DNA from: Escherichia coli
Lineage (GTDB): Bacteria > Pseudomonadota > Gammaproteobacteria > Enterobacterales > Enterobacteriaceae
Length of the DNA stretch: 64,000 nt
Assembly (NCBI RefSeq): GCF_024298765.1
Contig: NZ_CP101210.1
Reading direction: 5' to 3' (one strand)
Part shown: positions 15,961-53,528 of the stretch, one piece after another
Numbering within the stretch: the first letter of the stretch is position 1
Layout: each line of letters starts with the position of its first letter
Made by a program: the position numbers and the translations under genes
The notes under the pieces: generated by a model
Databases searched by the model: none
Seen by the model: the letters and a program-made list of their open reading frames with translations, nothing else
What the model was told of the DNA's origin: nothing

Positions 15961-16047
15961 GCCCGGATGGTGGAATCGGTAGACACAAGGGATTTAAAAT
16001 CCCTCGGCGTTCGCGCTGTGCGGGTTCAAGTCCCGCTCCGGGTACCA
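15961..16047 (+). tRNA. leuZ: tRNA-Leu, long variable arm; integration target of the prophage
   Basis: 87-nt sequence gcccggatggtggaatcggtagac...tccgggtacca; its 3' half is duplicated at 53405-53459. Confidence 0.9.
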
Positions 16048-16116
16048 TGGGAAAGATAAGAATAAAATCAAAGCAATAAGCAGTGTCGTGAAACCACCTT
16101 CGGGTGGTTTTTTTGT
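15993..16116 (+). repeat. attL: 124-bp direct repeat (3' half of leuZ plus downstream terminator)
   Basis: Identical by eye to 53405-53528; includes the leuZ terminator hairpin gaaaccaccttcgggtggttttttt. Confidence 0.85.
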
Positions 16117-50341: not shown

Positions 50342-50545
50342 TTAGCTGTTAGCCAAAGCGTCTTTTAACATCGCCACAAGGTTTACTTCAGGCTTTTCCA
50401 TTTTGGCACGTTTGGGGCGGATAATAATTCGACCGTCAGCCAACATCTTTTTGCATGTATTAAGAGGGATACCTGTTATCTCTGCATATTTCTGCAGGGA
50501 TACATAGGGGGCATTCACATTGATATTGATGGTTATACCTGACAT
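50342..50545 (-). CDS. Small HTH DNA-binding protein (Cox/Apl/excisionase-like)
   Basis: 67 aa with HTH-like YVSLQKYAEITGIPLNTCKKMLADGRI; second gene of the early operon. Confidence 0.4.
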   Translation of the reverse strand: MSGITININVNAPYVSLQKYAEITGIPLNTCKKMLADGRIIIRPKRAKMEKPEVNLVAMLKDALANS

Positions 50546-50561: not shown

Positions 50562-50768
50562 TCAGGAAGATTTGTTTTGTTCTTTCTGGGTTAGCTCTAG
50601 GCCGCGAAGGAAGATCATGCGCGCCATGTTAGAGGATGAGCGTTGTTCTTTAGTTGCCATTTCATCAATGACGGCTCGCTCTTCGAGGGACAGCCGAAGT
50701 GCCAGTCTTGGACCTGTGGCGGTGTTACGCGGAATGCGTGATCTGGTATCGTGAAGAACTTGTTTCAT
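50562..50768 (-). CDS. Small early regulatory protein (first gene of the early operon)
   Basis: 68 aa, divergent from the repressor gene across a 75-bp switch region. Confidence 0.4.
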   Translation of the reverse strand: MKQVLHDTRSRIPRNTATGPRLALRLSLEERAVIDEMATKEQRSSSNMARMIFLRGLELTQKEQNKSS

Positions 50769-50810
50769 AGTGGTATATTGTGATCATCTAATAGCTCGTG
50801 AAATCATTTT

Positions 50811-50828
50811 GGTATCAAAAAAGATACC
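50811..50828. promoter_or_regulatory. Candidate operator palindrome GGTATC-N6-GATACC in the genetic switch region
   Basis: Perfect 6-bp inverted repeat with an A6 spacer between the divergent early and repressor genes. Confidence 0.35.
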
Positions 50829-50843
50829 TGTCAAGGTTTTTGT

Positions 50844-51248
50844 ATGAAAAATGATATTGGTCAGCGGTTGCGTGAGGAAAGGGAAAGATTGGGGCTTAGT
50901 CAAGTTGCTATGAGCGAAATTGGTGGAGTCAAAAAGCTAACTCAGCTTAGATATGAGAAAGGAGATAGCTTTCCTGATGCTGCGTATTTGGCAGCGCTGT
51001 CTCGTTTTGGCCTTGATGTTCAGTATGTTGTGTTGGGAATTCACTCACCTGAAACTTATAACGATGATGAGCAGGAGTTGATTACTCGCTTTCGAGCAGC
51101 TTCGTTAGATGTAAAAAACGCGGTGATCGGGGCTTTAAAAAGTGCGGGCAGTGAAAAGGAAACTCAGCCATCAGGGCGTGAGTTAAATATTTCTGGTGGT
51201 AATAACCGTATCGCTGGTCGTGACTATAACGAAACTAAGGGTAGGTGA
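50844..51248 (+). CDS. Immunity repressor (XRE-family HTH, C/CI-like)
   Basis: N-terminal HTH IGQRLREERERLGLSQVAMSEIGGVKKLTQLRYEKG; divergent from the early operon; same strand as int. Confidence 0.65.
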   Translation: MKNDIGQRLREERERLGLSQVAMSEIGGVKKLTQLRYEKGDSFPDAAYLAALSRFGLDVQYVVLGIHSPETYNDDEQELITRFRAASLDVKNAVIGALKSAGSEKETQPSGRELNISGGNNRIAGRDYNETKGR

Positions 51249-51263
51249 TAGTAGGGAGGTGAC

Positions 51264-51914
51264 ATGGCCGTCAACTCAAACGGTTCAAACAATCGCGTTG
51301 CTGGGCGTGATTTTCACGAAAAGAATATTCAGATAGAGCGATATGATGGTTCTCATACCGTCAATATCGCAATCCCTTCGAATAATGATGATGACGCTCG
51401 CCCTTTGCTTAAGGCACAGCGTAAGGAGCTAAATAGCTTGGTTGCTGCTATTGCAGAAGCTAGCAATACTGAAGCGTTTATTATTTGGCAAAAAGTACAT
51501 GCGGAGATTGGTGTAGCTGGTATTGATGATATGACAATAAATCAATATAAAACAGCGGAGAGTTTTCTGCATGCAATGCTTGAGCGATGTAAAGATCATG
51601 ATGCCTGTAAGACTCTTGTAAGTTTATTACTACGTAACAGTGAAGACTGTGGACTTCGACAAAAACTTCTGCGGTATTGCCATATCAATTTCGGTACAGG
51701 ACGTTTAAACGATCTTACTCGTTCTCAGTTACAGTCTGCATTGTCGTGGTTAGAGCAACAATCGGTATCAAGCCACACAGAGAATTCGACCTTACCAGAA
51801 GTCCGCCTTCGTGCTTCAGAATTAATCCGATTTTATCCAAAAGAAATAATATTCTTTATCTGCGTAGGGGTTTTGGTAGGCGGAGCCATTTCTAGGATGT
51901 TTTTTAATTTGTAA
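51264..51914 (+). CDS. Hypothetical C-terminally membrane-anchored protein (lysogeny-expressed cargo)
   Basis: 216 aa with C-terminal TM IIFFICVGVLVGGAISRMFF; its N-terminus repeats a motif from the repressor C-terminus. Confidence 0.5.
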   Translation: MAVNSNGSNNRVAGRDFHEKNIQIERYDGSHTVNIAIPSNNDDDARPLLKAQRKELNSLVAAIAEASNTEAFIIWQKVHAEIGVAGIDDMTINQYKTAESFLHAMLERCKDHDACKTLVSLLLRNSEDCGLRQKLLRYCHINFGTGRLNDLTRSQLQSALSWLEQQSVSSHTENSTLPEVRLRASELIRFYPKEIIFFICVGVLVGGAISRMFFNL

Positions 51915-51943
51915 TCTTACTTGAGCTAAATTGAGGCAATGAC

Positions 51944-52291
51944 ATGAAAGTAAAAAAGGTTCAACTATTAGTTGCTTTTTTATCTATGTTTTCTTTTTCC
52001 GCCGTCGCAATGCCTTTTAAAACTATTGAACGTGAGAGTTTCAATGGAGTATGGCCATTTAATACAGATGAGGTTCAATTGCAGTGTCTTGATGGTAATC
52101 CTTATGTGATGAATTTTGACGATAATAAGTTATATGCGCTTACAGGTTTGGCTCGAATAAAAGGTAAAACATTTGGTGCGTTACCGTTAGATAACAATAA
52201 TCCATTTTGGCTAGATAATGATGCCGCCCCTGGGTTAAAAAAGAATCTGGGGGACGTCACTAAGGCTGCATTTGATTTATGTGATAAGTAA
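51944..52291 (+). CDS. Hypothetical secreted/periplasmic protein (lysogeny-expressed cargo)
   Basis: 115 aa with signal peptide MKVKKVQLLVAFLSMFSFSAVA and two Cys. Confidence 0.5.
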   Translation: MKVKKVQLLVAFLSMFSFSAVAMPFKTIERESFNGVWPFNTDEVQLQCLDGNPYVMNFDDNKLYALTGLARIKGKTFGALPLDNNNPFWLDNDAAPGLKKNLGDVTKAAFDLCDK

Positions 52292-52296
52292 CAAAG

Positions 52297-53298
52297 ATGT
52301 CGGTTCGTAAGATTCCATCAGGTAAATGGCTTTGCGAATGTTATCCCTACGGAGCATCGGGAAAACGCATTCGTAAACAGTTTGCGACAAAAAGTGAGGC
52401 GCTCTCTTATGAGCGCCGTTTAATGAATAGTAGAGTTGGAGACGAGTTTCAAGATGGTTCTGGTCCTCGTCTTTCTGAGTTGATTGCTCGTTGGTTTGAG
52501 ATGTACGGCAAAACCTTGTCCTCTGGTGCAGAGCGCAAAGTCAAACTTGAGGCGATTTGTTCTAGGCTGGGAGATCCATTTGCTTCTCAGTTTGACAAAA
52601 ATATGTTTGCTACTTATCGGGAAAGAAGGCTATCAGGAGAATGGAATCCCAAGGGGAAGAAAAAACTTAGTGAAGCAACCGTTAATCGCGAGCAGTCATA
52701 TCTACATGCTGTTTTTGCCGAACTGAAGCGCCTTGGGGAGTGGTCTGGTGAAAACCCCCTGACTGGAATTCGCAAGTTTCGTGAGGAAGAAAAGGAGCTG
52801 GCGTTTCTGTATGTAGATGAGATTGAACGCCTTTTGATTGCGTGTGATGAGTCACGGAATAAAGATTTGGGGGTTGTTGTCCGTATTGGGCTTGCGACTG
52901 GTGCTCGGTGGAGTGAAGCAGAAGGATTAAAGCAATCTCAAGTACTGCCCGGTCGAATCACATTTGTTAAAACTAAAGGAAAGAAGAACCGCACTGTACC
53001 GATTTCACCTCAATTGCAGGCTATGCTTCCTAAAAAACGAGGAGCGCTATTTTCACCATGTTATGAGGCTTTTGACGCTGCAATTAAGAGAGCGAAGATA
53101 GAGCTCCCTGATGGGCAATTAACTCATGTGCTACGTCACACGTTTGCTAGTCATTTTATGATGCGGGGCGGAAATATTCTTGTGTTGCAAAAAATACTGG
53201 GGCATAGCGATATAAAAATGACTATGCGTTATGCGCATTTTGCTCCGGGTCATTTAGAGGCTGCTGTTGAATTAAACCCTTTTGACAATAGAGGGTAA
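52297..53298 (+). CDS. int: Tyrosine integrase (P2/186 family)
   Basis: 333 aa with catalytic motifs ...RHTFASHF... and HSDIKMTMRYAHF; next to attR. Confidence 0.9.
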   Translation: MSVRKIPSGKWLCECYPYGASGKRIRKQFATKSEALSYERRLMNSRVGDEFQDGSGPRLSELIARWFEMYGKTLSSGAERKVKLEAICSRLGDPFASQFDKNMFATYRERRLSGEWNPKGKKKLSEATVNREQSYLHAVFAELKRLGEWSGENPLTGIRKFREEEKELAFLYVDEIERLLIACDESRNKDLGVVVRIGLATGARWSEAEGLKQSQVLPGRITFVKTKGKKNRTVPISPQLQAMLPKKRGALFSPCYEAFDAAIKRAKIELPDGQLTHVLRHTFASHFMMRGGNILVLQKILGHSDIKMTMRYAHFAPGHLEAAVELNPFDNRG

Positions 53299-53404: not shown

Positions 53405-53528
53405 TTTAAAATCCCTCGGCGTTCGCGCTGTGCGGGTTCAAGTCCCGCTCCGGGTACCATGGGAAAGATAAGAATAAAATCAAAGCAATAAGCAGTGTCG
53501 TGAAACCACCTTCGGGTGGTTTTTTTGT
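53405..53528 (+). repeat. attR: 124-bp direct repeat (partial 3' leuZ copy plus terminator)
   Basis: Identical by eye to 15993-16116. Confidence 0.85.

Follow-up and report, generated by a model that had tools for sequence, protein, structure and literature searches.

A phage repressor and its neighbouring tail-anchored Flk_N-domain protein as a possible two-gene immunity cassette

The 64,000-nucleotide stretch of Escherichia coli DNA analysed here (contig NZ_CP101210.1 of assembly GCF_024298765.1; hereafter the window) contains a P2-family prophage in whose lysogeny region the gene of an XRE-family immunity repressor is followed by that of ORF2 (open reading frame 2), a tail-anchored protein with an Flk_N domain. 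A 17-residue peptide in the C-terminal tail of the repressor is echoed near the N-terminus of ORF2, and sequence comparisons give roughly an even chance that the two genes form a conserved immunity cassette, in which the two motif copies link the repressor to a membrane-tethered modulator. This is supported by the adjacency of the genes, the co-occurrence of tail and partner, motif co-variation, selection at the protein level, the disorder of both arms and the tail-anchor architecture of ORF2. The features concerned are as follows.

50844..51248, + strand: XRE-family immunity repressor, 134 residues (Pfam HTH_31/HTH_19; phrog_8; fused AlphaFold2 (AF2) model)
51183..51233, + strand: repressor tail motif LNISGGNNRIAGRDYNE, residues 114-130
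51249..51263, + strand: junction TAG TAG GGAGGT GAC, 15 nucleotides (nt), read from the sequence
51264..51914, + strand: ORF2, 216 residues, tail-anchored Flk_N-domain protein (phrog_5825, E 2e-101; PF27202 on homologues)
51270..51320, + strand: ORF2 N-terminal motif VNSNGSNNRVAGRDFHE, residues 3-19, within a disordered region
51399..51782, + strand: helical Flk_N domain of ORF2, residues 46-173 (AF2; predicted local distance difference test score, pLDDT, about 97)
51837..51908, + strand: predicted C-terminal transmembrane anchor of ORF2, residues 192-215 (hydrophobic sequence; AF2 helix; G202 and G206 conserved)

The peptide shared across the repressor-ORF2 junction

BLASTP aligns residues 114-130 of the repressor with residues 3-19 of ORF2 at 10/17 identities and 15/17 positives (E 3e-5). 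The local-alignment score of the echo is 62 against 23.6 +/- 4.4 in shuffled sequences, and none of 5000 shuffles scores as high, so that the resemblance pointed out by an earlier, sequence-only reading of this DNA is significant. The same reading had stated that the nucleotide sequences of the two copies differ; the DNA is indeed only 59% identical over the 17 codons, with different synonymous codons. Codons are shared at 4 of the 10 identical motif residues of the window pair, as against 3.8 expected, and at 70 of 166 such residues across pairs, as against 62.6 expected. Since codon sharing is close to expectation, there has been no recent gene conversion and selection acts on the peptide; a recent duplication or gene conversion as the source of the echo is ruled out by this codon test.

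ORF2 lies in the reading frame of the repressor, yet is separated from it by TGA TAG TAG and then GGAGGTGAC ATG (51246-51263). Three consecutive in-frame stops make read-through from the repressor into ORF2 implausible, and a read-through or frameshift fusion of the two is ruled out by this triple stop together with the junctions of relatives, which are in other frames or overlap. The Shine-Dalgarno sequence of ORF2 directly follows the repressor stop, and relatives show TAAGGAxxxxxxATG, in which the stop overlaps the Shine-Dalgarno sequence. A Shine-Dalgarno sequence that overlaps or abuts the repressor stop gives a geometry that suits translational coupling. The junction in relatives measures -26 to +66 nt, most often 2-18 nt.

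The echo might also be a functionless relic, either of an ancient tandem duplication or of the fission of a single HTH-motif-motif-Flk_N-transmembrane protein (HTH, helix-turn-helix) at the present junction. The motif copies flank the junction, and most P2-like junctions are in frame, with gaps of 9, 15 or 18 nt, as a relic of this kind would leave them. However, the frames differ in other lineages (gaps of 2, 3, 11, 13, 32 and 66 nt; overlaps of -1 and -4), and neither the 136 representatives nor the 186 homologues include a fused HTH-Flk_N protein. Moreover, the peptide hardly varies in either gene although synonymous sites are saturated, and the motif has changed its flavour in parallel in both (see below). 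A relic is therefore very improbable.

The repressor consists of an HTH domain (residues 5-64), two helices (74-101) and a disordered tail (102-134) in the fused AF2 model. It matches HTH_31 (5e-5) and HTH_19 (7.5e-4) of Pfam as well as phrog_8, phrog_4 and phrog_3, all repressor families. With an HTH domain and divergent Arc-like and Cox-like genes on the opposite strand, it would be a phage repressor of the XRE/Cro-CI type. Peptidase_S24 has no match in the repressor, whose C-terminal part is made up of the two helices and the disordered tail, so a self-cleaving repressor of the LexA/CI type, which carries a C-terminal S24 peptidase domain, is rejected. The tail motif is the best-conserved repressor block within the class of relatives that share the AGRD form of the motif, with a mean column identity of 0.75 against 0.53 for the HTH, the HTH domains having diverged. 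In a Salmonella enterica contig (L128, 767-2801), three tandem XRE repressor paralogues of 141, 124 and 121 residues stand upstream of a single Flk_N gene; the tails of the first and second are intact (NRVAGRDYNEKK) and that of the third is degenerate.

Nine matches to the motif ('YKCEANNIAGRDFHEIKLNV') in a eukaryote-like immunoglobulin-repeat protein of 2754 residues (P0362), which came up in the search of representatives, were dismissed as a chance resemblance to the immunoglobulin F-G beta-hairpin. By analogy, this resemblance hints that the motif could adopt a hairpin.

Conservation of the pair and flavours of the motif

The conservation of the pair was examined in 80 viral loci with ORF2 relatives, from which 47 non-redundant IMG/VR pairs with ORF2 identities down to 57% were drawn. 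The gene directly upstream of ORF2 on the same strand is an XRE repressor in 47/47 pairs. The repressors end in ..[IV]SGxGNR[VI]AGRD[YF]NExKK and the ORF2 proteins start with M.VNSxGxxNRxAGRDFxE. No variation is seen at residues S5, G7, N10, R11, G14, R15, D16 and E19 of the ORF2 motif in 20 homologues with identities as low as 58%.

In a profile search, only 136 relatives emerged from 1.84 billion representatives; among them, the N-terminal motif is found in short phage-type proteins and is missing from the long chromosomal Flk proteins, which start with MQPxSG. Look-ups from distant Flk_N representatives revealed an XRE gene immediately upstream in 6/6 cases. In Mu-like transposable prophages of Pectobacterium, Gilliamella and Pseudomonas, recognisable by their rve transposase and AAA_22 ATPase, the repressor is followed directly by an Flk_N protein of 194-200 residues, and these more distant repressor homologues carry different Gly-rich tails. 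The Pseudomonas-type subfamily adds 30 further viral loci with identical repressor-Flk_N order. Viral scans queried with two further proteins, P0283 and P0303, gave no match. The cassette is carried by prophages of E. coli including O157:H7, Klebsiella, Salmonella, Serratia, Yersinia, Pectobacterium, Gilliamella and Pseudomonas, and its presence in both P2-like and Mu-like prophages suggests that the two genes are transferred together from one phage type to another. No Flk_N gene lies downstream of P0222, a related but tailless repressor in the P2/186-like prophage L126.

The motif occurs in about five flavours, and the tail of a repressor resembles the N-terminus of its own partner.

E. coli and relatives: tail GNRVAGRDYNE, partner NRVAGRDFNE
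Pectobacterium: tail QIFNGDISGQFAGNQIINN, partner QEFNGTAQGQFSSRDIINI
Locus L122: tail QTFNAPISGGEFAARDIVNH, partner QEFNNQIHDGQFAGRDIVNN
Gilliamella: tail GEGQIAGGNIY, partner AEQIAGRDIY
Pseudomonas types: tail QTFHGSVGQSVAGNVTNKSGVTFNV, partner QDFHGDVGQAAAGDINNYGVSISL
Pseudomonas types: tail GQQFNGPVGTVTSGDVVN, partner NQQFHDRVHQVAAGDIKN
Further flavour-matched example: tail QTFHGSVGQSVAGNVTN, partner QDFHGDVGQAAAGDINN

When the scores of 18 diverse pairs are summed, cognate partners reach 849, as against 543 +/- 59 with permuted partners (z = 5.2; 0/100000 permutations), a figure that overstates independence, because co-variation is block-like and reflects a handful of coordinated switches between about five flavour classes; with these classes as the effective units, the conservative significance is about 1/120 rather than 1e-5. 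Independent divergence after one duplication predicts equal similarity of cognate and non-cognate pairs, and does not explain the unequal similarities observed. The sequence-only reading had offered an old duplication or a shared interaction motif as the origin of the echo. The comparative data favour the shared interaction motif, whereas an old duplication, which may still have been the origin, leaves both the persisting likeness and the joint switching of flavour unexplained.

Alternatively, the motif may serve as a degron or as an adaptor tag for some third factor, for instance a protease or an early protein of the phage, by which the repressor and ORF2 are processed or recruited together with no mutual binding. 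Both motifs lie on disordered termini, as is typical of degrons, and the stability of the Mu repressor is controlled by ClpXP through its C-terminal tail. In addition, the Sp13 prophage of O157 is induced by mitomycin C although its repressor lacks a peptidase motif, the mechanism being unknown (PMC2669165). Among the Pseudomonas-type loci, on the other hand, the AGRD, QDFHG and QQFxG forms coexist; such diversity among phages of one host genus speaks against a reader conserved in the host. P2-like carriers have early operons unlike those of Mu-like ones, and no co-varying candidate for a third gene was identified. A shared tag for a third factor is thus rather improbable.

A variant subfamily (L116 1884-3043; L129 2-944) has a repressor with a helical C-terminal domain and no Gly-rich tail, and its Flk_N partner starts with a helix. 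In L129, 'DRLARIVDLLE' of the repressor echoes 'ERLARLAELLK' at the N-terminus of the partner, 96/5000 shuffles scoring as high (about 0.02). In L116, the similarity between repressor and partner is not significant, and a helical flavour of the motif is a lead only.

ORF2 as a candidate membrane-tethered modulator of the repressor

ORF2 belongs to phrog_5825, a conserved family with no function listed in PHROGs, and its homologues bear the Pfam domain PF27202 (Flk_N). A Pfam-A scan of ORF2 itself gave nothing significant, the release scanned lacking Flk_N. The NCBIfam Flk model NF007987 matches residues 38-168 of ORF2 over model positions 21-151 of 339 (E 6e-15), at 55.4 bits as against a curated equivalog cut-off of 353 bits. 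A score so far under the cut-off, together with a prophage context that is not flagellar, indicates that ORF2 is a paralogue of Flk and not Flk itself.

In an AF2 model built on an alignment of 44 sequences, residues 1-45 of ORF2, which contain the motif, are disordered (pLDDT about 55), and the helical Flk_N domain follows. The first three-helix part of this domain resembles the C-terminal bundles of Red-beta (its C-terminal domain, CTD), NinB and Sak. A sequence search of the PDB with the ORF2 profile gave no match, and Foldseek against BFVD produced marginal matches only, to ORF6C, RecT-CTD and Bro-N proteins. The C-terminal transmembrane anchor claimed for the 216-residue protein by the sequence-only reading agrees with the model, in which a helix at residues 192-215 of 216 lies over the hydrophobic stretch IIFFICVGVLVGGAISRMFF, kept in homologues. 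With a single hydrophobic helix at its extreme C-terminus and no signal peptide, ORF2 is predicted to be a tail-anchored protein of the inner membrane. Both motif regions are disordered in the AF2 models and the neighbouring domains are confident, as expected for short linear interaction motifs.

These features lead to a plausible model of the cassette. ORF2 would be made from the mRNA of the repressor, and the position of its Shine-Dalgarno sequence on or just after the repressor stop makes translational coupling probable. The C-terminal anchor would then sit in the inner membrane, leaving the bulk of ORF2 facing the cytoplasm. The two motif copies may pair with each other; alternatively, the ORF2 arm may be a mimic of the repressor tail and a competitor for the site at which this tail binds, either on the Flk_N domain or on a second repressor subunit. 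In either case, the membrane-tethered ORF2 would modulate the repressor, perhaps by sequestering, capping or buffering it, and could so tune or trigger the lysogeny switch. We infer both the physical binding of ORF2 to the repressor and the direction of its effect on repression. Since two disordered arms carry the same lineage-specific peptide in a coupled gene pair, a specific interaction would be the most economical explanation.

Several observations weigh against this model, in addition to the block-like nature of the co-variation. Within a flavour class, the cognate partner often does not give the top score, and the pairs of loci L121 and L125 score poorly. An AF2 run on a repressor-(GGGGS)5-ORF2(1-180) fusion showed no contact of motif with motif or of motif with the Flk_N domain, the motifs being non-helical with pLDDT about 40; the run was limited to 1:1 stoichiometry, to an artificial linker joining the two proteins and to a shallow alignment of 35 paired sequences. 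This predicted outcome is the main evidence against an interaction within the cassette, though it is weak. Furthermore, the rationale for a modulator made together with its target at a fixed ratio is not obvious, and the data hold no pointer to whether ORF2 helps or antagonises repression.

Among the closest parallels, SinR/SinI and SlrR/SlrA of Bacillus subtilis are loosely similar in logic: there, too, an XRE-type HTH repressor is joined by the product of an adjacent gene with a homologous segment. In SinR/SinI, the shared segment lets the partner engage and control the C-terminal interaction region of the repressor. The present partner likewise adjoins the repressor gene and shares the C-terminal segment of its product (17 residues, E 3e-5, co-varying). 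However, the SinR/SinI segment is a folded helical hook, whereas the peptide here is Gly/Asn-rich and disordered, and SinI is a small soluble protein with its own promoter, whereas ORF2 is a 216-residue tail-anchored Flk_N protein on the putative transcript of the repressor. The cI-rexA-rexB operon of lambda is similar in that the lysogen transcribes the immunity repressor gene together with further genes, one of them for a membrane protein, and the Rex proteins are reported to modulate the lambda switch too. Unlike ORF2, the Rex proteins have no motif in common with CI and are not universally linked to CI-type repressors across phage classes; nor are they related to ORF2 by sequence or domain.

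Flk (Fluke/RflH) of Salmonella and E. coli shares with ORF2 the Flk_N domain, the C-terminal anchor and a bulk that is cytoplasmic, but it is a chromosomal, flagellar protein of about 330 residues that starts with MQP[LIV]SG and lacks the motif. Anchored by its tail and facing the cytoplasm, Flk inhibits a cytoplasmic partner and is thought to do so by holding a domain of it, which keeps a component of the secretion apparatus in one state (PMC13344023); such a tethered inhibitor fits the role of a tethered holder for the Flk_N domain. Membrane-anchored proteins also bind soluble transcription regulators in Mlc-PtsG and in anti-sigma factors of the sigma-E/RseA type; the anti-sigma factor gene lies directly downstream of that of its regulator, as ORF2 does here. 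The likeness to these systems is one of topology, and there is no homology. Anti-repressors such as P4 epsilon, 186 Tum, P22 Ant and Qtip inactivate a non-cleavable repressor by binding, and the first Flk_N subdomain of ORF2 weakly resembles the C-terminal bundles of proteins of the Ant/ORF6C/Bro type. A more tentative proposal, which we consider somewhat doubtful, is that tail-anchored Flk_N proteins are widespread but as yet undescribed membrane-tethered partners of repressors in P2-like and Mu-like phages, recognising their own repressor by peptide mimicry and coupling the switch to a cue from the membrane or envelope. Such coupling would account, for instance, for the induction of the Sp13-type prophage of O157 despite a repressor unable to cleave itself.

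The prophage, the slot before int and the wider meaning

The prophage of about 37.4 kb lies within the window and is 97.5% identical in the lysogeny region to Escherichia phage 520873 of the genus Xuanwuvirus. Its insertion site is the 3' end of tRNA-Leu(taa), with the glyW-cysT-leuZ tRNA cluster on one side and yecA on the other. The features that surround the repressor and ORF2 are listed below.

15961-16047: tRNA-Leu
15995-16115 (attL) and 53407-53527 (attR): direct repeat of about 120 bp at the prophage ends, made of the 3' part of tRNA-Leu and downstream sequence
50342..50545, - strand: Cox-like excisionase/repressor gene of the divergent early operon (phrog_575, E 1.2e-27)
50562..50768, - strand: Arc-like repressor, first gene of the early (lytic) operon (phrog_3431, E 1.9e-28)
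50769..50843: switch intergenic region, 75 bp
50834..50806, - strand: predicted sigma-70-like promoter TTGACA-17-CAAAAT into the Arc/Cox operon (consensus scan)
51944..52291, + strand: ORF3, 115 residues, DUF2511 (YebY-like) protein with a signal-like N-terminus (PF10709; phrog_2950)
52297..53298, + strand: tyrosine integrase, int (phrog_1, E 1.4e-76)

The positions, sizes and strand that the sequence-only reading had assigned to the genes of the repressor and the 216-residue and 115-residue proteins are as it stated. The repressor, ORF2, ORF3 and int follow one another on the + strand at distances of 15, 29 and 5 nt, and a sequence scan found no + strand terminator-like site between them. Co-transcription of ORF2 and ORF3 with the repressor, as that reading proposed, is therefore plausible. 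The 1.5-kb module is present in 520/5426 complete E. coli genomes (~10%), O157:H7 included, mostly at 95-99% identity.

In O157:H7 380-94 (L130, NZ_CP104309 2062329-2081856), an IS3-truncated version of the prophage lies next to yecA with the identical module order of repressor, ORF2, DUF2511 and int, and also encodes a P4 epsilon-like 'derepression protein'. This truncated prophage fits the published description of Sakai Sp13. In the record of phage 520873 (L001, NC_049344.1, 3946-4986), the ORF2/ORF3 region has no annotation, tblastn recovers ORF2 in four fragments and the integrase is given as two separate coding sequences, which suggests that the breaks in both genes are sequencing or assembly frameshifts.

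ORF3 matches DUF2511 over residues 28-113 (PF10709, E 1.7e-5) and is distantly related to periplasmic YebY (7N0J, E 0.0067), both Cys residues being aligned. Its signal-like N-terminus MKVKKVQLLVAFLSMFSFSAVA, read directly from the sequence, bears out the signal peptide claimed earlier for the 115-residue protein. ORF3 thus has the domain, the signal peptide and the Cys pair of DUF2511/YebY proteins, in a context other than a copC/copD operon. The slot between ORF2 and int varies by locus, holding DUF2511, BRCT+WYL-like genes, phrog_3989, phrog_3403, phrog_17127, phrog_4293+3556 or nothing. Since its content changes from phage to phage, ORF3 behaves as a conversion or moron gene. On these comparisons, ORF3 is a separate, exchangeable cargo gene for a predicted periplasmic protein on the putative transcript of the repressor, and the slot looks like a hotspot for moron or defence genes.

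The slot genes of L046 (4627-5508), L050 (4661-5536), L048, L049, L068 and L072 encode BRCT+WYL-like proteins with partial matches to the candidate defence family PDC-S48, and members of several PHROGs of unknown function. In different P2-family prophages (L126 2857-3632; L049 4966-5729), with or without an Flk_N gene, int is preceded by a pair encoding a 117-residue Cys-rich protein (phrog_4293) and a C-terminally anchored coiled-coil protein of 137-140 residues (phrog_3556).

The sequence-only reading had treated both genes between the repressor and int as extra genes for superinfection exclusion or conversion. This stands for ORF3 with its variable slot and fails for ORF2, a constant companion of the repressor in every locus examined, including the Mu-like ones; patchy presence, by which moron and superinfection-exclusion genes are recognised, is seen for ORF3, whereas ORF2 occurs in all related loci. 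That reading was to be abandoned if the motif similarity proved insignificant and both genes were conserved phage genes of known function; the similarity is significant, and phrog_5825 and phrog_2950 are conserved families without known function. ORF2 could still be a superinfection-exclusion or defence protein of the inner membrane expressed in the lysogen, the motif being a generic self-association element that each protein uses separately. Its place in the repressor operon, its membrane anchor and the lack of a terminator before int are those of a classic rex/sie-type gene, and phrog_6521, a weak relative of ORF2, is labelled 'moron ... membrane protein'. Nevertheless, ORF2 is always present while the neighbouring slot varies, and it accompanies the repressor when this passes into Mu-like phages. 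Nor should a tag for generic oligomerisation have to change flavour along with the repressor tail, and PADLOC matches neither ORF2 nor ORF3 to a defence family. Exclusion or defence is therefore an unlikely role for ORF2.

Repressors controlled by an adjacent gene product with a common interaction segment, and the sequestration of regulators at the membrane, are already known in concept; full-text literature searches found no paper on the repressor-ORF2 pair, on Flk-like phage proteins or on PF27202. If the link between the two proteins is functional, temperate-phage switches would gain a new element, a membrane-anchored partner that is produced alongside the repressor and matched to it by a short peptide evolving in step. 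As natural swaps of specificity, the motif flavours make this hypothesis easily testable. The cassette is common, occurring in some 10% of complete E. coli genomes and in several other genera, and it offers a first clue to what the Flk_N domain does outside flagella. If true, the proposal may also be relevant to a P2-like prophage whose repressor is non-cleavable and whose induction by mitomycin C is unexplained (PMC2669165).

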